64,000 bases of DNA from IMG/VR virus record IMGVR_UViG_3300037467_000284, positions 1-64,000 of that record, one strand, 5' to 3'. This document shows positions 2,717 through 58,366 of this stretch, piece after piece. Position numbers and translations under genes: made by a program. Origin of the DNA: a virus. Every line of letters begins with the position of its first letter. Position 1 is the first letter of the stretch. Below the pieces are notes generated by a model, which had not been told where the DNA came from, searched no databases, and saw nothing but the letters and a program-made list of their open reading frames with translations.

Positions 2717-3385
2717 GTGAAAAAGATCATCGGCTACACCCGCGTATCGACCAAAGAGCAGGGCAAGACCCGGAACGGTCTTGAAGCGCAGGCGGAAGCT
2801 ATTCGGCTGTTCTGCCAGTACAACGGTTACGAATTGATCGAGATTGCTGAGGAAGTGCAATCCGGTGCTGACGATGATCGTCCTGTCCTCGCTGCCGTGA
2901 CAAAGCGTGCCAAAATGCTTGGAGCATTTGTGGTCGTGAACAAGCTAGATCGTTTGTCGCGTAGTGCCATCTTCATCCTGAACTACGTTCAGCAAAACTC
3001 AAAGTTCATCGTGACGATGCTTGGCGAGGACGTTGACCCGTTCATGCTGCACATATACGCGGGTTTGGCCGAGAAAGAGCGGCTGATGATTTCCGACCGG
3101 ACCCGCGCTGGTCTTCAGGCCAAGAAAGCCCGTGGCGAGGCTCTAGGGGCGTCCAAAGACGTTCTTGCGAGGGCTACGACCAACTCGCACATCACGATCA
3201 AGGCCAACGCTGACGCTTTCGCTGAACGCCTGAAGCCGATGATTAGCCGGATGCTCGCAGCCGGGATGTCGTATCGGGCCATCGCAGAAGAATTAAACAG
3301 CACTGGGACCAAGACAGTCCGGGGCGGCAACTGGCACGCCAGTTCCGTGAGCAATCTCGTTGAACGTTTGGCTACGGAGGCTTAA
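2717..3385 (+). CDS. serine recombinase (resolvase/invertase family)
   Basis: GTG start after GGAGG. The N-terminus MKKIIGYTRVSTKEQ is the catalytic-serine motif of resolvases. The C-terminus has an HTH-like segment, GMSYRAIAEELN. Confidence 0.8.
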   Translation: MKKIIGYTRVSTKEQGKTRNGLEAQAEAIRLFCQYNGYELIEIAEEVQSGADDDRPVLAAVTKRAKMLGAFVVVNKLDRLSRSAIFILNYVQQNSKFIVTMLGEDVDPFMLHIYAGLAEKERLMISDRTRAGLQAKKARGEALGASKDVLARATTNSHITIKANADAFAERLKPMISRMLAAGMSYRAIAEELNSTGTKTVRGGNWHASSVSNLVERLATEA

Positions 3386-3616
3386 ATGTGGTTTGGAACA
3401 TATTGCCTTGACCTATACTGCGACAATAGCGGTCCCGCAAGGGATGGGGCGACAATGGAGAACTATGACGGCATCCATGCCTTCCAAGAGTTCCCAAAGC
3501 AATACACGGGGGAGCACGGGTCTGCTTGCCGTGCTCAGGCCCGTAAGGACGGGTGGATCATACGTGGCGACGGTTCGGCTATCTGTCCTAAGTGCAGCGG
3601 CAAAACACGGAAGTAA
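3386..3616 (+). CDS. hypothetical protein with C-terminal zinc-ribbon-like motif
   Basis: 76 aa with its ATG directly after the recombinase stop. The protein ends in ...CPKCSGKTRK. Confidence 0.5.
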   Translation: MWFGTYCLDLYCDNSGPARDGATMENYDGIHAFQEFPKQYTGEHGSACRAQARKDGWIIRGDGSAICPKCSGKTRK

Positions 3617-3662
3617 AGTTCGCCGGGAGTGTCCCGGCTCTTTAACCAAAAGGAGAAGAAAA

Positions 3663-4214
3663 ATGAGTGAAATTGACATGATCATCATCGCAGGCGCGGC
3701 AGGTTTCGCGTTGGCTGCACACGCGGGCCAGAAACGCAAATATACTGGCGAGGACTATTACCATCACCCGAAGCGTGTGTGCGAGACTCTTGAGGCTCAC
3801 GGTCACAAAGATGTCGAAACTCTGGTTGCGGGCCTCCTACACGATGTCGTAGAGGACACGCACGTTACGCAAGAACAGATAATCGAGTATTTCGGCAACG
3901 ATGTTGCGGTTCTCGTGGGCTGGTTGACGAAGACTGGATGGGACGCACCGGCTCCTGCTCGTGCAGAGCGCAAAGCGTTCGAAGTGGCACGCCTGAAGGA
4001 TGCACCGTCCAAGGTAAAGACGATCAAGCTGGCGGATCGGTTGGATAACCTGCCGTCCGTGATCGAGCACGATCCGAAATTCGCTCCCGTCATCGTTGCG
4101 GAGACGCGTGAGCTGCTGGACGGAGCCCTCGTCGGCGGTTGCCCGAAGCTCTGGGCGAAGGTAGACGCGATTGTACGCGAATTTCAATCGAAACAGCTTG
4201 ACAAGGTAGCGTAA
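3663..4214 (+). CDS. RelA/SpoT-type HD-domain small alarmone hydrolase ((p)ppGpp/(p)ppApp hydrolase-like)
   Basis: ATG at 3663 after AAGGAG. HAGQKRKYTGEDYYHHP...AGLLHDVVEDT matches the SpoT/Mesh1 hydrolase HD signature. The 183-aa single-domain protein has no synthetase part. Confidence 0.75.
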   Translation: MSEIDMIIIAGAAGFALAAHAGQKRKYTGEDYYHHPKRVCETLEAHGHKDVETLVAGLLHDVVEDTHVTQEQIIEYFGNDVAVLVGWLTKTGWDAPAPARAERKAFEVARLKDAPSKVKTIKLADRLDNLPSVIEHDPKFAPVIVAETRELLDGALVGGCPKLWAKVDAIVREFQSKQLDKVA

Positions 4215-4227
4215 GTAGTACTACAAT
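4198..4227 (+). promoter_or_regulatory. sigma70-type promoter
   Basis: TTGACA (4198-4203), 18 nt, TACAAT (4222-4227), inside the 3' end of the HD gene and 30 nt before the rtcB start. Confidence 0.6.
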
Positions 4228-4256
4228 CCTACCTGTCAACTAACTAAGGAGAACAT

Positions 4257-5504
4257 ATGCAAGAACGTACCACTGCGAAGATGGTTATCCCTTCGGAAAA
4301 CGGCTCCCGTCCCATCAAGGTTTGGACGACCGATGTCGAAGACGAAGCCATGACGCAACTCAAGAACCTCTCCCGCCTGCCCTTCATTGCGAAGGAAGGT
4401 GTAGCCTGTATGCCGGATGTCCACGCGGGCAAGGGTAGCACCGTAGGAACCGTTATCGCCACGGATAAGGCGATCATCCCGGCTGCGGTAGGTGTGGACA
4501 TTGGTTGCGGCATGGTGGCTACCCGCCTGTCGCTGAAGGCGCACCAGTTGCCGGATTCCCTAGCACGGATTCGTTCGGAAATCGAACGTGTCGTACCGAT
4601 GGGTACTGGCGGCAACCACACTGCCAAGACCGGCCTGATGAACGAGAACGGCTCTCGTATGGGTCCGTACGGATGGCTGGTCCACTCGCTGCGTAACAAC
4701 GATGCGGTGTCGAAAGTCTTCGGTGGGGACGCTGGTAAAGCTGGCGAAAAGGCGTGGAGCCAAGTCGGTACTCTGGGATCGGGGAACCACTTCATCGAAA
4801 TCTGTATCGACCAGAACGACGATGTGTGGGTAATGCTGCACTCCGGTTCCCGTGGCATCGGCAACATGATCGGTCAGTACTACATCGACAAGGGTAAGGA
4901 ACTGATGGAGCAGTTTCACATTACGCTACCTGATGGCGACCTCGCCTACCTGCCGCAAGGGACCGACCTGTTCGAAGACTACGTAGCTGCCGTCCAGTGG
5001 GCGCAGGACTACGCGATGGAAAATCGCAAGTGGATGCTGAAAGCAGTGCTCGATGTGCTTCGCCGTGAGATTCCGGTAACGTTCGGTATCACGGAAGAGG
5101 CAATCAACTGCCACCACAACTACGTAGTACAGGAGAACCATTTTGGAAAGAACCTGTGGATCACTCGCAAAGGCGCTATCCGTGCCCGTGAAGGCGATCT
5201 GGGCATCATTCCGGGCTCGATGGGAGCAAAGAGCTACATCGTACGCGGGAAAGGCAACAAAGAGTCCTACTGCTCGTGCTCGCACGGGGCGGGGCGTAAG
5301 ATGTCACGGTCGAAGGCCCGTCAGATGTTCACTGTCGCTGACCTGAAGGCACAAACGCAGGGCGTAGAGTGCCGTAAGGACGATGCAGTACTTGACGAGA
5401 TTCCGGGCTCGTACAAAGACATTGACGTAGTGATGGAAAACCAGAAGTCTTTGGTTGAAGTTGTACATACGCTACGCGCTGTTCTTTGCTGCAAGGGTGC
5501 GTGA
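4257..5504 (+). CDS. rtcB: RtcB-family RNA 3'-phosphate ligase
   Basis: 415 aa with an AAGGAG RBS. GSGNHFIE, HSGSRGIGN, CHHNY and CSHGAGR motifs are characteristic of RtcB. Confidence 0.9.
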   Translation: MQERTTAKMVIPSENGSRPIKVWTTDVEDEAMTQLKNLSRLPFIAKEGVACMPDVHAGKGSTVGTVIATDKAIIPAAVGVDIGCGMVATRLSLKAHQLPDSLARIRSEIERVVPMGTGGNHTAKTGLMNENGSRMGPYGWLVHSLRNNDAVSKVFGGDAGKAGEKAWSQVGTLGSGNHFIEICIDQNDDVWVMLHSGSRGIGNMIGQYYIDKGKELMEQFHITLPDGDLAYLPQGTDLFEDYVAAVQWAQDYAMENRKWMLKAVLDVLRREIPVTFGITEEAINCHHNYVVQENHFGKNLWITRKGAIRAREGDLGIIPGSMGAKSYIVRGKGNKESYCSCSHGAGRKMSRSKARQMFTVADLKAQTQGVECRKDDAVLDEIPGSYKDIDVVMENQKSLVEVVHTLRAVLCCKGA

Positions 5505-18270: not shown

Positions 18271-18341
18271 TAAGAAAGAAGTAGAAAATTCCCCACTCCC
18301 TGTCGAAATTCTGACTTCTGATTTCCAGATAGGATTTCGAG
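18271..18341 (+). repeat. long direct repeat, copy 1
   Basis: 18271-18309 is identical to 23629-23667 (39 of 39). The next 32 nt match 19 of 32 without gaps by manual alignment. Confidence 0.9.
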
Positions 18342-18349
18342 ACAAGCCC

Positions 18350-18379
18350 AAAAAGAAAAGCCCCGCACGAAGGCGGGGC
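18350..18379 (-). terminator. rho-independent terminator of the 22924-18407 leftward block
   Basis: GCCCCGC-ACGAAG-GCGGGGC. On the minus strand it is followed by TTTTCTTTTT. It lies 28 nt after the stop of gene 18407-18784. Confidence 0.75.
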
Positions 18380-18406
18380 CGGGACGCGTTTGGAAATTTT
18401 TACGTT

Positions 18407-18784
18407 TCAAAATCCTTTCCACTGGAAGTGAATGGTATTAACGTACTGCCATTCAATCGCCCCAGTAAGCCCAATTAGCACAATCTGCGCAATGGCCCAG
18501 CCGGTCGAGACATCTTTGAATAGGTAGTACAGCATGCTACCGGATGCCACTACCAGCAGCAGGCAGTAGAAGGCGATAAGAATCCACGGGACGTTCTGCG
18601 TAGCAACCTCAGCGGAAAGTACGAGCACTACAGCGGATGGGACAAACAGCACGGTTGCGAACGTCGAACCCAAGATGCGGAGGACTGATTCGATGGCGAA
18701 AGCCTTGGTTTTCTCATAGCACATGAGAGCCCCAAGGCCAGCGACAACAAGCCATAAGATCAAACTGTCAGTGGCGGTTGGCAT
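18407..18784 (-). CDS. integral membrane protein
   Basis: 125 aa with about four hydrophobic helices. Confidence 0.6.
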   Translation of the reverse strand: MPTATDSLILWLVVAGLGALMCYEKTKAFAIESVLRILGSTFATVLFVPSAVVLVLSAEVATQNVPWILIAFYCLLLVVASGSMLYYLFKDVSTGWAIAQIVLIGLTGAIEWQYVNTIHFQWKGF

Positions 18785-18794
18785 GGTAGGCTCC

Positions 18795-19406
18795 TTAGAC
18801 GTACTTCTCAGCGTTAAAGGCTTCCATGAACGCGTTAAAGCCGTCCGGGTCGCCTACGGTGTAGTTCCAGTCCGCTACCACTTCGCTGCCATCGTCCGCG
18901 TTGCCGAACACGAAGCGAATGTAGTGTTGGCCGAAACCTTCTTTAAAGACGTACAAGGTGCAGTCGTCTAGATTGAACATGACTTCCATTGCCTGCTTCG
19001 TGAAGTCGCCCTTGTTCAGTAGGATTTGGGTCAATTCTTCGCCGTCATCGATGTCCACCAACTTGAATCCGGCTTGCTGAAGCTCGGTAAGCAGGGCGTA
19101 GACAACTTTACGCTCGTTCTTGGCCCGGATGTGCATCGGCTCGTTCTTCCAGAGCACCTTATCGATGTCCAGAGCCGGGAAGCCGTTCTCTGCTACGCTG
19201 GTGTCAACACCTCTGCATTCAAGCAGGTAGCGTACGAAGGCAGCTTCTAGCTTAGCTGCCCTGTCGTCCATCTGGAGCGTGATGTTCGATTGCTTGGCCC
19301 GGAATTGCATGTCTTCGAAGGCATGGTCGATGATTGCCTGTTCTTCCTGCGTCAGAACAGTGGAACGCTTGTTGAGGAAATCGCGGTCTGCGGCTGATAG
19401 GGTCAT
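18795..19406 (-). CDS. hypothetical protein
   Basis: ATG at 19406 after AAGGAG. It abuts the stop of the upstream gene at 19408. The longer track ORF overlaps that gene. Confidence 0.6.
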   Translation of the reverse strand: MTLSAADRDFLNKRSTVLTQEEQAIIDHAFEDMQFRAKQSNITLQMDDRAAKLEAAFVRYLLECRGVDTSVAENGFPALDIDKVLWKNEPMHIRAKNERKVVYALLTELQQAGFKLVDIDDGEELTQILLNKGDFTKQAMEVMFNLDDCTLYVFKEGFGQHYIRFVFGNADDGSEVVADWNYTVGDPDGFNAFMEAFNAEKYV

Positions 19407-41984: not shown

Positions 41985-42061
41985 GGGTCGTTAGCTCAGT
42001 GGACAGAGCATCGGTGTTCTAGGCCGATTGGTCGAGGGTTCGAATCCTTCACGACTCACCA
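41985..42061 (+). tRNA. tRNA-Arg (anticodon UCU), CCA encoded
   Basis: Manual cloverleaf:
- acceptor GGGTCGT/ACGACTC;
- D arm GCTC-AGTGGACA-GAGC;
- anticodon stem TCGGT/GCCGA with loop GTTCTAG;
- T arm GAGGG-TTCGAAT-CCTTC;
- discriminator A followed by CCA. Confidence 0.8.
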
Positions 42062-47807: not shown

Positions 47808-49676
47808 TTGAAATTGGACATCTCGCAACAAATCCTCAGTGACGTAGTAGTGTTTAACAAGTATAGTAAATACATCCCGAAGCTTGAGCGCCGGGAAACA
47901 TGGGAAGAAATCTGTGATCGCAATATGGCGATGCACATTGCCAAGTATCCGGCTCTGGCTGACGAAATCGAAAACGTTTTCAATACGTACGTGAAAACTA
48001 AGAAAGTGCTCCCTTCGATGCGTTCGATGCAATTCGGTGGGCGTCCTATCGAAATCAACAACACACGTATGTTCAACTGCTGCTGCCTGCCTATCGACAG
48101 CTACATCTCGTTCAGTGAAACGATGTTCCTGTTGCTTGGTGGCTCAGGCGTTGGCTATAGCGTCCAGAAACACCATGTCGAGCAGCTTCCGGCAGTCGTA
48201 GGCCCGAAGGCTAAGAAGCGACGCTACCTTGTAGGAGATAGCATCGAGGGCTGGGCAGATGCAGTGAAGGTGCTGTTCCGTGCCTACTTCGAGAACAAGG
48301 CTGATCCGGATTTTGACTACCGGGACATCCGTGAAAAAGGAGCATTGCTTGTCACTGCTGGTGGTAAGGCTCCGGGACCGGACCCGTTGCGTATCTGCCT
48401 TGAGCATGTCCGTGTCATCCTAAACAACGCTCGTGGACGTAAGCTTACCCCGCTGGAGTGCCATGACATCCAGTGCCACATTGCGGATGCTGTCCTATCT
48501 GGCGGCATTCGTCGTGCTGCTATGATTGCATTCTTCAGTCCAGATGACATCGACATGATTACGTGCAAGAGCGGTGCATGGTGGGAACTGAACCCGCAAC
48601 GTGGCCGAGCTAACAACAGCGTTGTACTGGTACGTGGCACGATTGACGAAGCAACGTTCAAGGCAATCTGGAAGCGTGTCGAAGAATCGAATGCCGGGGA
48701 ACCGGGAGTGTACTGGACGAATGACCGGAACATCCTGAGCAACCCGTGTGTGGAAGCAACGTTGCTTATGTACTCGTTCTGTAACCTCACCACGGTTAAC
48801 GGTGACGATGTTGACACTCAGGAGGAACTGAACGCTCGTGCTCGTGCTGCTACGTTTATTGGAACGTTGCAAGCTGGCTACACCAACTTCCACTACCTGC
48901 GTGAAGTGTGGAAGGAAGTGACGGAAGATGACGCCCTAATCGGCGTGTCGATCACTGGCATTGGTTCTGGTAAGATTCTCAAGCTGAACCTTGAGCAAGC
49001 TGCTTTCGAAGTGGTGCGTGAGAACGCCCGTGTTGCTGGCATCATCGGCATCAAGACGGCTGCTCGTACGTCGCTGAACAAGCCAGAAGGTACTGCGTCC
49101 ATCGTTGTCGGTTCGGCTTCCGGTATTCATGCTTGGCATGCTCCGTACTACCTGCGTCGTATGCGTGTCGGTAAGAACGAAGCACTATACCACTACATGA
49201 TCAAGAAGTTCCCTCTGCTAGTTGAAGATTGCCACTTCAAGCCTCACTTGGAAGCGGTGATGACCTTCCCGCAGAAAGCTCCAGAGGGTTCGATCCTGCG
49301 TACGGAGAGCTTCATGGATTTGTTGGAGCGTGTACGTCGCTTCAACCAAGAATGGATCGCACCGGGCCACAACCGTGGCGTACAGAAGCATAACGTAAGC
49401 TGCACCATCAGCCTGAAAGCTGACGAGTGGGAAGCTTGCGGACAGTGGATGTGGGACCACAGGGACGAATACAACGGTATCAGCGTTCTCCCGTACGATG
49501 GTGGCACTTACGTTCAGGCACCATTCCAAGATTGCACCAAAGAAGAGTACGAAGGGCTGATGGCATACATCGAAGCACAGGGCTCGTTCGATCTTCGACA
49601 AGTGAACGAGGAAGAGGATTCTACTAACCATACTGGCGAGTTGGCCTGTGCTGGCGGAGCCTGTGAGGTAAGGTAA
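47808..49676 (+). CDS. ribonucleotide reductase, single large subunit (probably class II, B12-dependent)
   Basis: TTG start (47808 or 47814) after AAGGAA. It has the catalytic SNPCVEA motif and a C-terminal Cys pair (CAGGAC). No beta subunit is present in the window. The class is inferred. Confidence 0.7.
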   Translation: MKLDISQQILSDVVVFNKYSKYIPKLERRETWEEICDRNMAMHIAKYPALADEIENVFNTYVKTKKVLPSMRSMQFGGRPIEINNTRMFNCCCLPIDSYISFSETMFLLLGGSGVGYSVQKHHVEQLPAVVGPKAKKRRYLVGDSIEGWADAVKVLFRAYFENKADPDFDYRDIREKGALLVTAGGKAPGPDPLRICLEHVRVILNNARGRKLTPLECHDIQCHIADAVLSGGIRRAAMIAFFSPDDIDMITCKSGAWWELNPQRGRANNSVVLVRGTIDEATFKAIWKRVEESNAGEPGVYWTNDRNILSNPCVEATLLMYSFCNLTTVNGDDVDTQEELNARARAATFIGTLQAGYTNFHYLREVWKEVTEDDALIGVSITGIGSGKILKLNLEQAAFEVVRENARVAGIIGIKTAARTSLNKPEGTASIVVGSASGIHAWHAPYYLRRMRVGKNEALYHYMIKKFPLLVEDCHFKPHLEAVMTFPQKAPEGSILRTESFMDLLERVRRFNQEWIAPGHNRGVQKHNVSCTISLKADEWEACGQWMWDHRDEYNGISVLPYDGGTYVQAPFQDCTKEEYEGLMAYIEAQGSFDLRQVNEEEDSTNHTGELACAGGACEVR

Positions 49677-50593: not shown

Positions 50594-50600
50594 ATACTAA

Positions 50601-50638
50601 GGCTGGAGTAGCTACGGCTGCTCTGGCCTTTTTCTTTT
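50601..50638 (+). terminator. rho-independent terminator
   Basis: GGCTGGAGTAGC-TACG-GCTGCTCTGGCC (with G.U pairs) followed by TTTTTCTTTT. Confidence 0.7.
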
Positions 50639-51134: not shown

Positions 51135-51626
51135 ATGAAACTCATCATCGCTGGAAGTAGATCGATCAAGGACTACAACGTTACACGGCAGGCTATCATC
51201 GAAAGTGGCCTGTGGCATACATACGGCAAGAAGATCGTGGTGGTATCTGGGGAAGCTGAAGGCCCGGACAAGCACGGACTGATATTCTCAGAGAAGGCCG
51301 GATTGAAGAAGCCTATCAAGAAGCCTGCTAAGTGGGACGACATTAAGGCTCCGGGAGCAGTGGTACGCTACCGCAGAGATGGAAAGCCATACAATGTGCT
51401 CGCTGGCTACTGGCGTAACGAAGAGATGGCTCAGATTGCGGATGCGGCCCTGATTGTATGGGACGGGCGTAGCACTGGAAGCTTGGACATGCTGCACCGG
51501 ATGGTAGCGCATGGGAAGAGCGACAGCACTTACTTGTTTCCGCTCCGTATCGATGCTGATGCGCTCGACCGCCTGCAAGATAAGTGCCACATTATTTTTC
51601 CAAACAGCTTGACACAGGATAAGTAG
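51135..51626 (+). CDS. DUF2493 / YpsA-related SLOG-family protein
   Basis: MKLIIAGSRS...VVVSGEAEGPDKHG...WRNEEMAQIADAALIVWDGRSTGSLDML follows the SLOG (Rossmannoid nucleotide-binding) layout. The family call is from memory. Confidence 0.6.
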   Translation: MKLIIAGSRSIKDYNVTRQAIIESGLWHTYGKKIVVVSGEAEGPDKHGLIFSEKAGLKKPIKKPAKWDDIKAPGAVVRYRRDGKPYNVLAGYWRNEEMAQIADAALIVWDGRSTGSLDMLHRMVAHGKSDSTYLFPLRIDADALDRLQDKCHIIFPNSLTQDK

Positions 51627-52840: not shown

Positions 52841-53065
52841 ATGAAAGCTGTCATTAAGAGCCGTAACCAACGTGAAGGTAAATTTGTTCCGGGCTGGTGC
52901 TACAACCCGGCATTCAAGAGGACAGACGCTGGGAAGGTGTTTCCGAAGAAGCGTGCTGGTGCTCACTACGAGCTTCGGAAAGTGATTGGCTATACCGACA
53001 TCGTTGGAAATTTCATTCCCGGCCTCACTTACTTCCGTACCTACCGCGAAGGAGCATTCGAATGA
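52841..53065 (+). CDS. hypothetical protein
   Basis: 74 aa with an AAGGAG RBS. Confidence 0.55.
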   Translation: MKAVIKSRNQREGKFVPGWCYNPAFKRTDAGKVFPKKRAGAHYELRKVIGYTDIVGNFIPGLTYFRTYREGAFE

Positions 53066-53901
53066 GCTTGCGCATCGATGACAAGGAACTGTCGTTCACC
53101 AAGACGACCTTCCCCGGTGGCGAGTCGTGCATCCGTGTGGAAGTGGCAGGGGATGAACTCCCGAAGGGCATCGCAATTCAACTGGACTTCGAATCGAACT
53201 CTGACTTGTTTGATCTGGCCCTGCTGGTTGATGCCATTCGTCGCGTGTACGATGAGCGTATCACTCCGCGTGCTCCGATCATGCTGTTCCTTCCGTATGC
53301 ACCGTACGCTCGTCAGGACCGTGTGTGCAACGAAGGCGAAAGCCTGAGTATCAAGGTTGTGGCTGATTTCATCAACGCCCTGAACTTCGAAAGCGTGTGC
53401 ATCGTTGACCCTCACTCGGACGTTACCTCAGCGTTGTTTAATAACGTAGTGGTTATTCCGCAGGAAACGTTCGCTTCTTGCATGTTCCAAGGGTTGAAAC
53501 GTTCGAACACTATCATCGTTGCTCCGGATGCTGGTGCATCGAAGAAGGCTCGGAAGTTTGCACAAGCTGGCGGGTTCGCTGGCCTACTCCAAGCTGAGAA
53601 GGTGCGCGATCTATCAACGGGTAAGATTCTGAAGACGAAGATCAACGTCGATGAACTCGGACCTCCAGACGTTGACTACCTAATCGTAGATGACATCTGC
53701 GACGGTGGGCGTACTTTCACGGAACTGGCTAAGGTGCTGCGTCCGACTACTATCGGAAAGATCATGCTGTTCGTAACGCACGGTATCTTCTCGGCAGGCA
53801 CAGAAGTGTTTGACAACCTTATCGATGAAGTGTACACTGCTAATCCTGTCGGGGCCACTGGCAAGGCAGCAGTGGAATCTGGTAAGGTGAAACGTATCTA
53901 A
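53062..53901 (+). CDS. ribose-phosphate pyrophosphokinase (Prs) homologue; candidate ADPR-pyrophosphate synthetase (Adps-type)
   Basis: ATG at 53062 (ATGA overlap). FPGGES, YAPYARQDR and VDDICDGGRTF motifs match the Prs family. 279 aa. Confidence 0.75.
   Translation: MSLRIDDKELSFTKTTFPGGESCIRVEVAGDELPKGIAIQLDFESNSDLFDLALLVDAIRRVYDERITPRAPIMLFLPYAPYARQDRVCNEGESLSIKVVADFINALNFESVCIVDPHSDVTSALFNNVVVIPQETFASCMFQGLKRSNTIIVAPDAGASKKARKFAQAGGFAGLLQAEKVRDLSTGKILKTKINVDELGPPDVDYLIVDDICDGGRTFTELAKVLRPTTIGKIMLFVTHGIFSAGTEVFDNLIDEVYTANPVGATGKAAVESGKVKRI
53810..53838 (+). promoter_or_regulatory. candidate internal sigma70-type promoter
   Basis: TTGACA, 17 nt, TACACT, inside the 3' end of the Prs-like gene. 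Confidence 0.4.
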
Positions 53902-53941
53902 CGCTATGTAAGTAGCACTCATTAACTAAGGAGAAAAGAAA

Positions 53942-54157
53942 ATGGCAGCACATAAAATCGGAACCAAAGTCGTGTTCAGTAACGGAGAAGCCCTTCACGA
54001 TGTCACCAACGGCAAGGAATACACCATCGCTGGTATTGATTGGGATGGCGATGAGTACTTCATCGATGATGCTGGTGAGCGCAACTACGCGGCTGCATCT
54101 GGCGACTCTCGTTTGGGTGAAGGCGATGGAGTCTACACTATCGTAACCGAGCAATAA
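53942..54157 (+). CDS. hypothetical protein
   Basis: 71 aa with an AAGGAG RBS. Confidence 0.55.
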   Translation: MAAHKIGTKVVFSNGEALHDVTNGKEYTIAGIDWDGDEYFIDDAGERNYAAASGDSRLGEGDGVYTIVTEQ

Positions 54158-54168
54158 GGAGAATGAAA

Positions 54169-54426
54169 ATGCAAGTTCAAGTTTTTGACCAACCGGCGCA
54201 AGATGTCCTACGTGTTAAGCTTGTTCCGAACGACAACAGGGGGGATGTCAAAGGTGGCGTAACTGTTGTAGCCGTGGACGCGGACGGTACGGAAATCCTC
54301 GCCGGGAAAATCGTAACGATCAACGAAAACGGCGTGTACATCTGGCCTTATCTTGCTAAAAGTGTTGACCTCCCACGAGACGACAACAAGCAGGCCGTCA
54401 AACTGATTCGCACCGCCAACTACTAA
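54169..54426 (+). CDS. hypothetical protein
   Basis: The second ATG (54169) has a 7-nt spacing from AAGGAG. The track start at 54163 is only 1 nt from the RBS. Confidence 0.55.
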   Translation: MQVQVFDQPAQDVLRVKLVPNDNRGDVKGGVTVVAVDADGTEILAGKIVTINENGVYIWPYLAKSVDLPRDDNKQAVKLIRTANY

Positions 54427-54435
54427 GGAGAGCAT

Positions 54436-56061
54436 ATGCAAATCAAACCGCATCTGATTCTGGACTCGTACAAACTGGGCCACATCGATCAATACCCGGA
54501 AGGCACTGAGTACGTGTACTCCAACCTTACCGCTCGTTCCGCTGCTCACGCCAAGATGGGCAAGCTGTATGACAACAAGGTGGTGTTCGTCGGCCTGCAA
54601 GGCTTCGTGAAAGAGTTCCTGATCGAAGCGTGGAACGAGTACTTCTTCAAGCGCCCGAAGGACGAAGTGGTGGCTGAGTACAAACGTCGCTGCGACAATT
54701 TCTTAGGGCCGGATGCAGTGAGGACGGATCACATCGCAGCTCTGCACGATCTTGGCTACCTGCCTATCGTCATCAAGGCTCTGCCTGAAGGATCGCGTGT
54801 GGACATCAAGGTTCCATTCTTGACCATCAAGAACACGCTTCCGCAGTTCTACTGGCTGACGAACTATCTGGAAACCGTCCTGTCGGATGAGCTGTGGCAG
54901 CAGATCACGATTGCTACCATTACGTACGAGTACCGTCGCATCCTGAACAAATACGTGGAACTCACGGGAAGCTCGCCAGAGTTTGCCGACTGGCAGATTC
55001 ACGATTTCTCGATGCGTGGCATGGTGGGCTGGCATGGTGCTGCTAAGGGCGGGGCTGCTCACCTGTTCGTGTCCCGTGGCACTGATACGCTGCCTGCTAT
55101 CGACTATCTGGAACAGTACTACGGTGCTGACGTTACGAAGGAACTGGTTGCTGGCTCCGTTCCTGCTACGGAACACTCCGTCATGTGCATGGGGGGTAAA
55201 GCCGACGAGATTGGCACGTTCCGTCGCTTGATCAAGGATGTGTACCCGTCCGGTATCGTGTCCATCGTCTCGGATACGTGGGACTTCTGGCTAGTGATTA
55301 CCCAGTACACCCGTGTTCTGAAGGACGACATCCTTAACCGTACGCCGAATGCTCTGGGACAGGCGAAGGTAGTTTTCCGCCCTGACTCCGGCGATCCGGT
55401 GAAGATCATCACTGGCCTCCGTGCTATCGACTTCGATCTGCTGGACGAAGACAATTACTACAACTACGATGTGGTTATCAAGGACGGCAAGTACTACGAG
55501 TTCGAACAGGAACGTTGTGGCGATGTCTGCAATTGCATGTTGGATACGCAGCTTGGCCGGGAAGTGCCGGAGCACGAGGTCAAAGGTGCTGTGGAATGCC
55601 TCTGGGACATCTTCGGTGGCGACGTAACGGCGAAGGGCTACAAGACCCTGAACCAACGTGTCGGCCTGATCTACGGTGACAGCATTACGCTGCAACGTGC
55701 AGAAGACATCCTGCAACGCCTGATGGACAAGGGCTTCAGTGCTGGCAACATCGTGTTCGGCGTCGGCTCGTACACCTACCAGTACATCACCCGTGATACC
55801 TTCGGTATGGCCGTAAAAGCGACCTACGGCGTTGTGAACGGTGAAGCTCGTAACATCCAGAAAGACCCGAAGACCGGTGACGGCATGAAGAAGTCTGCTA
55901 CTGGCTTGCTTCGTGTCGAGAAGGAGGGCGACAAGTTTGTACTGTACGATCAGCAGACCGAAGACGAAGCAGACCAAGGCGAACTTCAGATTGTGTTCTC
56001 GAACGGTGTTCTTGTTCGTAACACTACCTTCGCTGAAATCGTGGAACGCCTTAAGCAATAA
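54436..56061 (+). CDS. nicotinamide phosphoribosyltransferase (NAMPT) homologue; candidate nicotinamide ADPR-transferase (Namat-type)
   Basis: 541 aa. The N-terminus ILDSYKLGH, the FRPDSGDP motif and the overall length match the NAMPT/NadV family. Confidence 0.8.
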   Translation: MQIKPHLILDSYKLGHIDQYPEGTEYVYSNLTARSAAHAKMGKLYDNKVVFVGLQGFVKEFLIEAWNEYFFKRPKDEVVAEYKRRCDNFLGPDAVRTDHIAALHDLGYLPIVIKALPEGSRVDIKVPFLTIKNTLPQFYWLTNYLETVLSDELWQQITIATITYEYRRILNKYVELTGSSPEFADWQIHDFSMRGMVGWHGAAKGGAAHLFVSRGTDTLPAIDYLEQYYGADVTKELVAGSVPATEHSVMCMGGKADEIGTFRRLIKDVYPSGIVSIVSDTWDFWLVITQYTRVLKDDILNRTPNALGQAKVVFRPDSGDPVKIITGLRAIDFDLLDEDNYYNYDVVIKDGKYYEFEQERCGDVCNCMLDTQLGREVPEHEVKGAVECLWDIFGGDVTAKGYKTLNQRVGLIYGDSITLQRAEDILQRLMDKGFSAGNIVFGVGSYTYQYITRDTFGMAVKATYGVVNGEARNIQKDPKTGDGMKKSATGLLRVEKEGDKFVLYDQQTEDEADQGELQIVFSNGVLVRNTTFAEIVERLKQ

Positions 56062-56089: not shown

Positions 56090-56374
56090 ATGACGCTTGA
56101 TAGATTCGGTGAGGAAGTGCATACTGGCGATGTTGTCGTGTATGCGGACACCAACGTAAGCGGCAATAGCATCTCACTGGATGTGTACCTCGTGACTCAA
56201 CTGATCGATGTCCATACCTGCAAAGGTCAGTTGATGAACGGGGAGTGGGCAGGAGAAGAGTTCTACCTAGAGAACACAACCAGTAGATGTGCGTTTCTGT
56301 ACGAATCAAGTCCAGAGATGGACGAAGATGAAGAAGAGGAAGACAGCCTTCCTGAACAACCAACCCTCAATTAA
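56090..56374 (+). CDS. hypothetical acidic protein
   Basis: 94 aa with the C-terminal tail DEDEEEEDS. Confidence 0.55.
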   Translation: MTLDRFGEEVHTGDVVVYADTNVSGNSISLDVYLVTQLIDVHTCKGQLMNGEWAGEEFYLENTTSRCAFLYESSPEMDEDEEEEDSLPEQPTLN

Positions 56375-56383
56375 GGAGAAAGT

Positions 56384-57811
56384 ATGAATCATCAAAAGAA
56401 TTATGTCGGCTTTGCAAACGATCACTCGTCCTCGATGTACGATATCGCATCGGCTGCGATCCGTGACTACAACAACAACATCGCTGCGATTACTGGTGCT
56501 GCATCCCGTGAAACGCTGGATACCATCGTAACGGTTGTTGGCTTCGGCACTACCGTGGAACGCCAGCTTGTCAACTCCAATCCGCACGTTCTGAAACCTG
56601 TCGCCAACTGGAAAGCCGCAGGCTGGACTGCGCTGTACGATGGCATCGGCGAAGTCATTGAACTGTTCAAGACCATGCCGGACTACGACAACCCGAACGT
56701 CTCGTTCCTTGTGCTTGCTACCACGGACGGGGAAGAGAATGTGTCGAAGCGTTGGAGTGCTGCTTCGCTGGCTGCTGAAATTCGCAAGCTGCAAGCAACT
56801 GGCCGCTGGACGTTCGTTCTGCGTGTACCGGAAGGGACTGCCCACCGTGTAGCTAACCTCGGAATCCCGGCTGGCAACGTGCAAGAATGGGATACCACGG
56901 CTGCTGGCATGGAGAAATCCACCGTGGCTACTACCCAAGCGTTCGACCAGTTCTACGCTGCTCGTGCTGCCGGTGTGCGTTCGTCCAACGTGTTCTACAC
57001 TAGCACTGCTGCTGTTGACACTTCGAAGCTGGCTGACATCAGCAAAGAGACTTCGCTGTACCAAGTCGGGGCTGACCAGAACGGTATCCAGATCAAAGAC
57101 TTCATCTTGACGAAGCGTATGGAGTACTTGATTGGTGGCGCGTTCTACCAACTCACCAAGACGGAGCCGCGTGTGTCGCCTACCAAGCTGATCCTGATCC
57201 GTGAGAAGGCTACCGGCAAGGTGTACGCAGGTAAGGACGCACGTACGATGCTTGGACTCGATACGGTGAACAACGCTCGCGTGCATCCGAATCACGGTGG
57301 CGGTGGCTATGACATCTTCATCCAATCGGAGTCGGTGAATCGTAAGCTGGTGGCTAACACTGGCGTGCTGTATTGGCCTGCTGCCGGTCGTAAGCTGACC
57401 CAAGCCGATCTGGACAAATACTCAAGCCAGAAGAATGCCCCGGCTGTGCCTGTCCTGCCTGATGCTCCTGCTACTGGCCGTCCGACTCCGAACCCGGCTT
57501 CGGTGACGACCCAGAAGGCAGTGGCTCCGGGCCAAGCGAAGGTAGGTACGCCGCTTACGTACAACCCGAACACGCACGATCTGAAGGTTACTCCGAACGG
57601 CCAACTTGCAGCGATGCCGAAGGGTGGCAAGCCGCAGCCGATCCTGCCGAAAGACGGCGGTCGTGTCCGCTTCCACGCTGCTCCGGGGAACGCAGTGTTC
57701 TACAAGACGCGTGAACTGGCTCGTGCTCAGGCTCTCGTACAAGGCAAGAAGTCGTACGATGCTGGCCCGACTGCCCCGAAAGGCTTACGCTTCTACGTAG
57801 CAGCAGCGTGA
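56384..57811 (+). CDS. von Willebrand factor A (vWA) domain protein
   Basis: MIDAS-type DxSxS motif (ANDHSSSM) and ATTDGEEN in the N-terminal roughly 200 aa. The C-terminal roughly 270 aa are unassigned and Pro-rich. Confidence 0.65.
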   Translation: MNHQKNYVGFANDHSSSMYDIASAAIRDYNNNIAAITGAASRETLDTIVTVVGFGTTVERQLVNSNPHVLKPVANWKAAGWTALYDGIGEVIELFKTMPDYDNPNVSFLVLATTDGEENVSKRWSAASLAAEIRKLQATGRWTFVLRVPEGTAHRVANLGIPAGNVQEWDTTAAGMEKSTVATTQAFDQFYAARAAGVRSSNVFYTSTAAVDTSKLADISKETSLYQVGADQNGIQIKDFILTKRMEYLIGGAFYQLTKTEPRVSPTKLILIREKATGKVYAGKDARTMLGLDTVNNARVHPNHGGGGYDIFIQSESVNRKLVANTGVLYWPAAGRKLTQADLDKYSSQKNAPAVPVLPDAPATGRPTPNPASVTTQKAVAPGQAKVGTPLTYNPNTHDLKVTPNGQLAAMPKGGKPQPILPKDGGRVRFHAAPGNAVFYKTRELARAQALVQGKKSYDAGPTAPKGLRFYVAAA

Positions 57812-57889: not shown

Positions 57890-58366
57890 ATGGCTCTGAA
57901 GATTGAATCCGGGGATGTGTTCAACGAACTGGCAGCAATGCAAGAAAAGCGGAAGGGTGTGATCTTCGTACACGGCTGCAACGCTCAAGGCGTGATGGGA
58001 AGTGGCATCGCATCATTGGTGAAGAAATTGTACCCTCATGCGTACGAAGCGTACAAAGCGGAGCATCGTGACTTCGGGCTTGTTTTGGGGGATGTTGTTT
58101 GGGCGAAACCTAACGGCGGATACGTTTACGTAGGTAACGCTATTACCCAGAAGAATTATGGGCGGGATGGCAAACTGTATGTGGACTACAACGCAGTGGT
58201 GGTCGCACTTGAGCACGTAGCTGCTGAGGCACGTAGCGCTAAATTGCCGGTCTTCCTGCCGATGATTGGTGGCGGACTTGGTGGAGGTGACAAGAAGCGT
58301 CTGACTGCTATCTTCCAAGCTGTATTCCATGATGTCGATGCAACGCTGTTCTTGAAGGAGGAATGA
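57890..58366 (+). CDS. macrodomain (ADP-ribose binding/hydrolase) protein
   Basis: IFVHGCNAQGVMGSGIASLV...LPMIGGGLGGGD is the macrodomain glycine-rich ADPR-binding pattern. 158 aa. Confidence 0.75.
   Translation: MALKIESGDVFNELAAMQEKRKGVIFVHGCNAQGVMGSGIASLVKKLYPHAYEAYKAEHRDFGLVLGDVVWAKPNGGYVYVGNAITQKNYGRDGKLYVDYNAVVVALEHVAAEARSAKLPVFLPMIGGGLGGGDKKRLTAIFQAVFHDVDATLFLKEE

Follow-up and report, generated by a model that had tools for sequence, protein, structure and literature searches.

Phages can counteract defense systems that deplete nicotinamide adenine dinucleotide (NAD+) by encoding pathways that rebuild it. In the NAD+ reconstitution pathway NARP1, described for phages Bas63, SPbetaL1, Fado, and ICP1 (Osterman et al. 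2024, bioRxiv 10.1101/2024.02.11.579819; PMC12774641, PMC13586617) and reported in 859 phages (4.3% of those analyzed), this task is carried out by two enzymes, Adps and Namat, which are homologous to ribose-phosphate pyrophosphokinase (Prs) and nicotinamide phosphoribosyltransferase (NAMPT, Nampt, or NadV), respectively. Here we report the computational analysis of a 64,000-nt stretch of virus DNA (IMG/VR record IMGVR_UViG_3300037467_000284, positions 1 to 64,000; hereafter, the window), in which a preliminary description had noticed a Prs-like and a NAMPT-like gene and proposed them as a NARP1-type counter-defense candidate. The analysis bears out this proposal: both proteins carry the published residue signatures and fall within validated clades, and the gene pair is very probably a NARP1 module of a ~90-kb tailed phage.

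Several related systems provide the frame for this comparison. In NARP1-AP (Adps-Adpp-Namat) of Vibrio phage Gary (bioRxiv 10.64898/2026.01.28.702374), the pair is joined by the phosphatase Adpp. NARP2, known from Vibrio phage KVP40 and its relatives, combines Nampt/NadV with the bifunctional Nmnat-Nudix protein NatV, and NARP3 consists of a PnuC-like transporter and a NadR-like kinase/adenylyltransferase (PMC13464706). NARP1-like loci also occur in bacteria, e.g., the pfAdps/pfNamat genes of Paenibacillus foliorum (PMC12774641).

The window locus shares with NARP1 the same-strand two-gene pair in a phage genome, the selectivity-clamp helix and catalytic core of Namat, the PP loop, hairpin lysine, and truncated C-terminus of Adps, and the lack of a phage nicotinamide mononucleotide (NMN) adenylyltransferase (NMNAT). 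Unlike the described NARP1 pairs, it has 71- and 87-aa non-conserved open reading frames (ORFs) between adps and namat, a clamp loop reading S-A-A-H with no Arg/Lys/Tyr at the third position, and a 55-aa Namat insertion that is lacking in SPbetaL1 and ICP1, with a larger one in Bas63; moreover, it is known here from sequence, and relative to the validated enzymes, identity reaches only 39-49% in its Namat and 34-40% in its Adps. The likeness to NARP1-AP lies in a same-strand Adpp homologue nearby, which is conserved clade-wide; unlike in Gary, this macro-domain gene is located outside the operon, behind two conserved genes, and its phosphatase role is predicted. As in NARP2, a NAMPT fold and nicotinamide would serve to restore NAD+ during infection, whereas the NARP2 Nampts have no aromatic clamp helix (GGGLLQ... 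type), are 28-29% identical to the window protein, and are accompanied by Nmnat (as in phiM7), of which none was found in the window or its relatives. Neither PnuC nor NadR is present in the complete Pfam lists of the window (22 and 20 families). Having no Nmnat and no Nampt-type helix, the locus is therefore not NARP2, and having no PnuC or NadR, it is not NARP3. Cellular Prs and Nampt/NadV (human, Xanthomonas) share with the window proteins the folds, the FxxGE, YARQDR, and RPDSGD motifs, the catalytic Lys, and the catalytic His. In contrast, the DxxDTGGT loop, KRRPR hairpin, DLHA motif, and helices alpha11-alpha12 of Prs are replaced or lost in the window protein, and the GxGGxLLQ helix of Nampt is replaced by GSYTYQY.

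The two genes are as follows; both ORFs, their strand, and all motifs given for them in the preliminary description (FPGGES, YARQDR, and VDDICDGGRTF in the first, FRPDSGDP in the second) were found.

53062-53901, plus strand: adps, encoding the Prs-like protein of 279 aa; ORF confirmed
54436-56061, plus strand: namat, encoding the NAMPT-like protein of 541 aa; ORF confirmed

IMG/VR contains 11 relatives of this phage, most of them on contigs of 89-92 kb, whose NAMPT-like proteins are 72-88% identical to that of the window and whose Adps proteins are 54-69% identical; they are referred to below by locus numbers (L) where they need to be told apart.

Selectivity clamp and phylogeny of the NAMPT-like protein

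In Pfam, the NAMPT-like protein matches NAPRTase (9.9e-35) and NAMPT_N (1.5e-08), and its FRPDSGDP motif occupies aa 314-321 (nt 55375-55398). The preliminary description held that sequence alone cannot separate the synthesis of NMN from that of NAD+; this view is outdated, as structure papers of 2026 give sequence rules for both enzymes, and the window proteins satisfy them. For Namat, the structural study of the SPbetaL1 enzyme (PMC12774641) described a "selectivity clamp", whose helix has the consensus GS-X-phi-X-phi-X-phi-TRD. The corresponding features of the window protein are:

55765-55797, plus strand: selectivity-clamp helix (SCH) GSYTYQYITRD, aa 444-454, which fits the consensus of PMC12774641 and contains the adenine-stacking aromatics
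54535-54576, plus strand: RSAAHAKMGKLYDN, the aligned equivalent of the selectivity-clamp loop (SCL), with S-A-A-H
55417-55581, plus strand: Namat insertion of 55 aa, aa 328-382, at a hypervariable surface site

At the position of the clamp helix, the reference proteins read:

SPbetaL1 Namat (validated): GSFTYQYNTRD
Bas63 Namat (validated): GSYTYQYMTRD
Human NAMPT: GSGGGLLQKLTRD
Xanthomonas (Xcc) Nampt: GMGGALLQKVDRD
Slopekvirus Kpn35c1 Nampt: GGGLLQEVTRD
phiM7 Nampt: GGQLLQAPMRD

Both adenine-stacking aromatic positions are retained in the window protein, whereas all four Nampts, two of them biochemically or structurally characterized (human and Xcc) and two from phages (Kpn35c1 and phiM7), are without aromatics there. 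The two phage proteins served as NARP2-type references, and the phiM7 Nampt gene adjoins an NMNAT-Nudix gene.

The catalytic core is intact in the alignment, with equivalents of SPbetaL1 D13, Y15, F189, R192, D215, R306, and D308; R306 aligns with window R315 within FRPDSGDP, and the catalytic His is H247 in PATEHSVM. Among structures in the PDB, SPbetaL1 Namat (9w5x) ranked far above human NAMPT and Xcc Nampt (512 bits, E 1.9e-152, versus 210 and 192 bits). The sequence identities point the same way, being 49% to SPbetaL1 Namat, 39% to Bas63 Namat, and 28-29% to the NMNAT-linked phage Nampts. When 2047 phage records were searched with tblastn, the hits formed an upper identity group (38-55%) of SPbetaL1, ICP1, and Bas63-like Felixounaviruses and a lower one (25-31%) of T4-like and phiM7-type Nampts. 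In a neighbor-joining tree, the window protein is placed inside the clade bounded by the Bas63, SPbetaL1, and ICP1 Namats, and this clade is split from the NMNAT-linked Nampts (phiM7, Kpn35c1) in 100% of 300 bootstraps. The NCBIfam model NF006629 was tried as a discriminator and rejected, as it fails to separate Namat from Nampt.

The SCL is described as variable: R, K, or Y usually occupies its third position, and where this is not the case, stacking on adenine falls to the fourth residue, while single-loop mutants lose just 1.3-1.7-fold activity (PMC12774641). The pattern S-A-[AGS]-H was found at this position in 7 of 7 aligned relatives (L006, L007, L009, L010, and L013-L015), with the His invariant; this residue may be the adenine-stacking fourth residue. 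The proteins of SPbetaL1, ICP1, Acinetobacter, and mycobacteriophages do not have the 55-aa insertion, whereas ~77 aa occupy this site in the validated Bas63 Namat; the size of the insertion varies even among close relatives.

One further observation concerns PDB entries 9ke8/9keo, which are named "nicotinamide phosphoribosyltransferase" (495 aa). They scored 405 bits against the window protein, far above human NAMPT, and their clamp helix, GAQTYQRNTRD, has one aromatic only.

PP loop, hairpin lysine, and phylogeny of the Prs-like protein

The Prs-like protein matches Pribosyl_synth (1.4e-07) and Pribosyltran_N (2.6e-07) in Pfam and TIGR01251 (2.6e-36) in NCBIfam, with FPGGES at aa 17-22 (nt 53110-53127) and YARQDR at aa 82-87. 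The ICP1 Adps structures of 2026 (PMC13586617) revealed a remodelled donor-ATP PP loop, the hairpin lysine K185, and the loss of the C-terminal alpha11-alpha12, which in Prs is a regulatory and filament module; conservation of the PP loop was proposed there as an annotation rule for Adps. The loop was located in the window protein as follows:

53686-53718, plus strand: Adps PP loop VDDICDGGRTF, aa 209-219, aligning to ICP1 Adps D212 to F221

Its core, DDICDGGRTF, is identical in the window protein and the validated Bas63 Adps, and the ICP1 counterpart reads DDICDGAASF. In contrast, the six cellular Prs used for comparison (E. coli, B. subtilis, Rhodococcus, Nostoc, Sphingomonas, and a Rhizobium plasmid copy) have a loop of the DD(M/I)(I/V)D(T/S)(A/G)GT(L/I) type at this position, e.g., DDMIDTGGTL or DDIIDTAGTI. 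The hairpin of the window protein, EKVRDLSTGKIL, is of the same type as in the validated Adps (K-V-R-D-x-x-T-G-K-I), one residue longer than the Prs KRRP-R, and places K180 at the position of ICP1 K185. The His motif reads DPHSDV, the type also found in validated Adps, versus DLHA in the six cellular Prs, and THGIFS is another stretch of Adps-type residues. Equivalents of ICP1 R87, H121, D161, K185, D212, and D213 are window R84, H118, D156, K180, D210, and D211, and those of C215, D216, F18, and F221 are also present. At 279 aa, the protein falls within the range of validated Adps (272-293 aa) and below that of cellular Prs (310-330 aa), and its alignment to E. coli Prs stops ~25-30 residues short of the C-terminus of the latter.

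Profile scores agree with these motifs. All eight NCBIfam Prs equivalogs are failed by the window protein, the best, NF002095, reaching 105.9 of the 296 bits required, and the broad subfamily TIGR01251 is the sole model passed (125 versus 113 bits), as it also is by Bas63 Adps; overall, the score profile equals that of the Bas63 and SPbetaL1 Adps. PHROG was of no use as a discriminator, since E. coli Prs also matches phrog_619 (193 bits) and NARP2-type Nampts match phrog_448 (514-554 bits). In the tree, every one of 300 bootstrap replicates separates all Adps-like sequences from the six cellular Prs, and the window protein lies within the clade spanned by the validated Bas63, SPbetaL1, and ICP1 Adps. 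Thus, the comparison with housekeeping and characterized phage enzymes that had been recommended for this locus groups both window proteins with validated Adps and Namat. Pairwise scores of the Prs-like protein were 157 bits for ICP1, 141 for Bas63, and 92 for SPbetaL1 Adps, versus 82 bits for E. coli Prs; the identity to the validated Adps is 34-40%.

Search for NMN adenylyltransferase and Nudix genes

According to a published survey, of the phages that encode a true Nampt, 94% encode an Nmnat as well. Pfam was applied to every window ORF that reaches 100 aa in any of the six frames (147 ORFs) and detected no CTP_transf_like, NUDIX, NadR, or PnuC domain, and motif regular expressions gave no credible Nudix box or NMNAT motif in the window. 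A loose Nudix-like match near nt 49554 lies inside a ribonucleotide-reductase-like ORF and was judged a chance occurrence. Tblastn searches of 510 kb (the window and its relatives) with the phiM7 NMNAT-Nudix and NrtR Nudix proteins returned nothing, in agreement with the earlier remark that the window has no NMNAT or Nudix candidate. The remaining part of the genome, for which the same search had been advised, was reached by walking through relatives: in a collinear relative, the 28.6 kb beyond the window, covered by 64 ORFs, included no NMNAT, Nudix, NadR, or PnuC gene. The failure to find NMNAT fits NARP1 and misfits NARP2.

Operon layout

The two enzyme genes are separated by two small ORFs:

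53942-54157, plus strand: small ORF of 71 aa between adps and namat, with an AAGGAG site; also a JGI gene call
54163-54426, plus strand: small ORF of 87 aa between adps and namat, with an AAGGAG site; also a JGI gene call

The gene calls on an identical 4.7-kb JGI metagenome contig (279, 71, 87, and 541 aa) correspond to the same four genes, each of which is preceded by an AAGGAG-type ribosome-binding site. Although the mechanical ORF of the Prs-like gene begins at GTG 52897, its true start is ATG 53062 by sequence criteria, because this codon has an AAGGAG site ahead of it and forms an ATGA overlap with the stop of the upstream gene, a conserved gene of 74 aa. The namat gene starts 535 nt 3' of adps on the same strand. 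No strong terminator was found between the genes of the 53062-56061 set, the sole convincing one nearby being upstream, at 50599-50630. The number of promoter-like sequences is at chance level (7 versus 7.1 expected), and therefore no promoter is claimed. The earlier reading of one operon with two tiny genes between the enzymes is thus upheld by the common strand, the tight spacing, the ribosome-binding sites, and the lack of a strong terminator.

The adps-namat pairing is retained in every relative in which both genes are covered, and in a published survey, 97% of Adps-clade genes adjoin namat. The small ORFs are less constant among the 11 relatives: the 71-aa ORF, which has a weak match to phrog_15694 (E 7e-06), has a homologue in L007 only, and the 87-aa ORF, with no Pfam, PHROG, or PADLOC match, has homologues (38% identity) in L010, L011, and L012 only. 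Judging from this distribution, the adps-namat intergenic slot looks like a site where variable small cargo genes are gained and lost.

Macro-domain gene and other conserved neighbors

The genes that accompany the pair on either side are:

51135-51626, plus strand: 163-aa protein matching phrog_289 'GTP-binding domain', with an N-terminus read as SLOG/DUF2493-like (GSR...GxxGxD)
56090-57811, plus strand: two conserved genes between namat and the macro-domain gene, encoding 94 aa (56090-56374) and 475 aa (56384-57811)
57890-58366, plus strand: macro-domain protein of 158 aa with homology to Adpp, the third gene 3' of namat (~1.8 kb away)

The macro-domain protein accounts for the ADP-ribose-related neighbor that had been noted earlier. 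It aligns over its full length with KNV71_gp137 of Vibrio phage Gary (30% identity, E 4e-09), the validated ADP-ribose (ADPR)-1''-phosphate phosphatase Adpp of the NARP1-AP pathway (bioRxiv 10.64898/2026.01.28.702374), and the HxCN, MGxGxA, and LPxIGxG..GGD motifs are common to both proteins. It also matches phrog_335 'phosphatase' (127 bits), to which the Adpp orthologue of phage Skimmer belongs as well; the Skimmer operon is 95.5% identical to that of Gary at the DNA level. The PDB neighbors of the window protein and Adpp are nearly the same (SCO6735, BT1257, 5m3i), with a weak match to Poa1p. The gene is conserved in 11 of 11 relatives (51-74% identity), which suggests a dispersed NARP1-AP layout. 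By analogy with Gary, the macro-domain protein plausibly acts as an Adpp-type ADPR-1''-phosphate phosphatase, an assignment that is less certain than the NARP1 roles of the gene pair; alternatively, it could be a DarG- or TARG1-like de-ADP-ribosylase. The published criterion for NARP1-AP calls for an Adpp homologue within two genes of adps or namat; lying three genes beyond namat, the window gene is therefore missed by this rule.

A macro-domain gene was also seen in Bas63 (L021, MZ501086.1), the phage of the NARP1 discovery (Osterman et al. 2024). This 'putative phosphatase' gene, bas63_0095 (18279-19064), is located ~8 kb downstream of adps-namat, and its product is 37% identical to the window macro-domain protein and matches phrog_335 at 378 bits. 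Adpp-like genes outside the operon may be common.

Nearly all relatives retain the 94- and 475-aa genes with their order unchanged. The 475-aa protein, a match to phrog_26613 (function unknown), has a Pro-rich low-complexity middle part and no PDB relative; its N-terminus was tentatively read as vWA-like, and DHSSSM as a possible MIDAS-like motif. Its few homologues in GenBank phages (Caulobacter phage Cr30, Myrna/Phabba, and Streptomyces phages) do not adjoin NARP1. Upstream of adps, the SLOG-like gene is present in all relatives covering the region (57-80% identity); its product has no Pfam or PDB match and could be a nucleotide-ligand-binding protein tied to the same counter-defense region. 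The array conserved among the relatives is SLOG-like ... adps - variable small ORFs - namat - 94-aa - 475-aa - macro. PADLOC reported nothing relevant.

Predicted pathway and alternative explanations

In the proposed pathway, TIR, SIR2, SEFIR, or similar effectors of the host would cleave NAD+ to ADPR and nicotinamide. Adps would then pyrophosphorylate ADPR at its 1'' hydroxyl with the beta,gamma-pyrophosphate taken from ATP (ADPR + ATP -> ADPR-PP + AMP). Namat, whose aromatic clamp is expected to select the adenine-bearing donor, would replace this pyrophosphate with nicotinamide and so form NAD+ directly (ADPR-PP + nicotinamide -> NAD+ + pyrophosphate), and no NMN adenylyltransferase would be needed. 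The macro-domain protein may act first by converting ADPR-1''-phosphate, an aRES-type defense product, to ADPR, which would feed the pathway. The reactions and the counter-defense role are predicted from those of characterized homologues.

Several points weigh against the assignment of the pair to NARP1. In the SCL, Ala takes the place of the typical Arg, Lys, or Tyr, and the residues equivalent to ICP1 F92 (adenine contact) and F223 (ATP lid) are Cys and Glu in the window Adps, although these two positions are likewise variable in the validated Adps of Bas63 and SPbetaL1. By raw score, SPbetaL1 Adps is barely ahead of E. coli Prs; as the raw scores are not clear-cut, the Adps assignment rests on the motifs, the tree, and the ICP1 and Bas63 scores. 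Both trees are neighbor-joining reconstructions of ~20-26 sequences rather than maximum-likelihood trees of a broad sample, and the absence of NMNAT beyond the window is extrapolated from a relative with an 82%-identical Namat. The macro-domain gene lies outside the published two-gene neighborhood, and its product also resembles TARG1, SCO6735, and DarG-type hydrolases. Finally, Namat enzymes retain NMN synthesis from phosphoribosyl pyrophosphate (PRPP) in vitro (PMC12774641), so that the window enzyme may have some classical activity as well; the KVP40 Nampt, for its part, favors PRPP over ADPR-PP.

Retained NMN synthesis would also fit a classical salvage boost, in which PRPP comes from the Prs-like enzyme, NMN is formed from nicotinamide by the NAMPT-like enzyme, and NadD, NadR, or NadM of the host completes NAD+; the pair would then have a role like that of NARP2 or a purely metabolic one, with no NMNAT supplied by the phage. 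We consider such a role improbable. The atypical SCL residue would agree with it, whereas the adenine-clamp helix is present and has no role in PRPP chemistry, and the loop that binds the phosphate of ribose 5-phosphate in Prs, DTGGT, is replaced by CDGGRT, as in validated Adps. Database names and profiles do read Prs and NAMPT/NAPRTase, with PHROG 619 and 448 undiscriminating, and the closest annotated homologue is an Acinetobacter chromosomal prs-nadV locus that is conventionally read as salvage; against these names stand the position of both proteins in validated clades and their 100% bootstrap separation from Prs and Nampt. Moreover, the protection conferred by Bas63, which has the same Adps PP loop, is independent of host PncC or NadR, and the Nmnat that nearly all phages with a true Nampt carry was not found here. 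Both observations behind the argument made at the outset in favor of counter-defense are confirmed: the missing NMNAT, for the window and for the rest of the genome in a collinear relative, and the ADP-ribose-related neighbor. A further reading, in which the module has decayed or been repurposed, e.g., because one partner is inactive or because it acts on a different ribosyl donor or acceptor such as nicotinate or some other ADPR derivative, is very unlikely. Decay is known from nature, as in an ICP1 isolate with a nonsense codon in Namat, and the variable small ORFs between the genes, the 55-aa insertion in Namat, and an SCL unlike the described types could be taken as its signs. However, both ORFs are intact and full-length with strong Shine-Dalgarno sites, all checked catalytic residues are conserved, both genes are kept in at least 11 related genomes (at the identities given above), and the validated Bas63 Namat has a larger insertion at the same site.

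Beyond the NARP1 assignment itself, one may ask whether the wider region is a dispersed, extended NARP1 locus, in which the distant macro-domain gene is coupled to the pair, the intervening genes and small ORFs are counter-defense genes or cargo, and the clamp loop is of a His type, with His taking over adenine stacking from Arg, Lys, Tyr, or Trp. As a joint proposition, this is possible but rather doubtful. If true, the published neighborhood rule misses such loci and NARP1-AP is under-counted.

Implications for annotation

The locus is a clear further example, in an uncultivated lineage, of the known system described in 2024, and no new kind of system. It adds a lineage of ~90-kb tailed phages, with at least 12 related genomes in metagenomes, to those predicted to rebuild NAD+ by NARP1. 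The gene pair should not be labelled PRPP synthetase and NMN synthase, and the residue rules of 2026, which rest on the clamp helix for Namat and on the PP loop for Adps, allow "Prs/NadV" pairs to be re-annotated from sequence alone. As Adpp-like macro-domain genes can sit outside the operon, NARP1-AP may exceed the reported 15% of NARP1 phages. The clamp loop of this clade has a residue pattern not previously described.

Related loci in other genomes

Three further loci were seen alongside that of the window. L002 (CAKLQF020000015.1, 'Acinetobacter phage MD-2021a'; 7099-10316) contains prs2-nadV with a DDICDGGATF loop and a GSFTYNYLTRD helix. Its phage label was rejected, as the sequence is a bacterial chromosomal contig with ABC transporter, AraC regulator, and efflux genes as neighbors. 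The adjacent gene, annotated as a bifunctional NMNAT/ADPR pyrophosphatase, actually encodes an NrtR-type regulator (NUDIX and NrtR winged helix domains). NrtR regulators respond to ADP-ribose. From its sequence, L002 looks like a bacterial NARP1-like pair beside an NrtR regulator. This pair, the closest annotated homologue (55% identity), shares its Namat and Adps signatures with the window; unlike the window locus, it is chromosomal and is followed by the NrtR-type Nudix-winged helix-turn-helix regulator, of which the window phage has none.

In Vibrio phage ICP1 2017_Dha_A (L003, MW794152.1; ~3030-4461), the reading frame of Namat is interrupted by a stop codon close to its 5' end (...EVTHV*SNFTSR...) and is annotated from a downstream GTG (439 aa), and the TRD of the clamp helix is TCD. 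Namat is possibly decaying in that isolate. In Vibrio phage D69 (L023, OZ195729.1; 2805-5707), a divergent trio consists of a Prs-like gene, a small ORF, and a NAMPT-like gene. The 604-aa NAMPT-like protein is 29% identical to that of the window and has a degenerate clamp helix, GSFASLENSTRD, while the Prs-like protein keeps DDICDGGMTF; this locus may be an intermediate or variant NARP1 type.

The phage genome

The source of the window is a ~90-kb tailed phage, and a 91.8-kb contig carries the identical NAMPT-like protein. When the 3-kb locus was compared by megablast with 50,697 phage records, a 59-nt match was all that emerged, i.e., no close GenBank phage relative, and the protein at the right end of the window has no relative in IMG/VR. 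The window covers the replication and nucleotide-metabolism part of the genome, with Pfam matches to RtcB, RNA and DNA ligases, primase-helicase, Pol A, UvrD-like helicase, and class II ribonucleotide reductase, as well as to GH108 lysin, ArdA, and serine recombinase. The other 28.6 kb of the collinear relative represent the structural module, which includes terminase, Mu-type portal, S49 protease, decoration protein, major capsid protein E, tail terminator, tape measure, and fiber genes, together with homing endonucleases.

Some additional features were observed in the window. The part at ~1-24000 encodes RtcB, RNA ligase, an HD_4 protein, ArdA, a serine recombinase/resolvase, and a DoxX-like protein. 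The set of RtcB and RNA ligase suggests tRNA repair against host anticodon nucleases, which would be another counter-defense. An ORF within 32000-64000 has a dGTP_diPhyd_N match (dATP/dGTP diphosphohydrolase N-terminal domain, E 9.3e-17) and may point to modified-nucleotide metabolism. A single tRNA-Arg gene (anticodon TCT) is located within the replication module at 41985-42061 on the plus strand.

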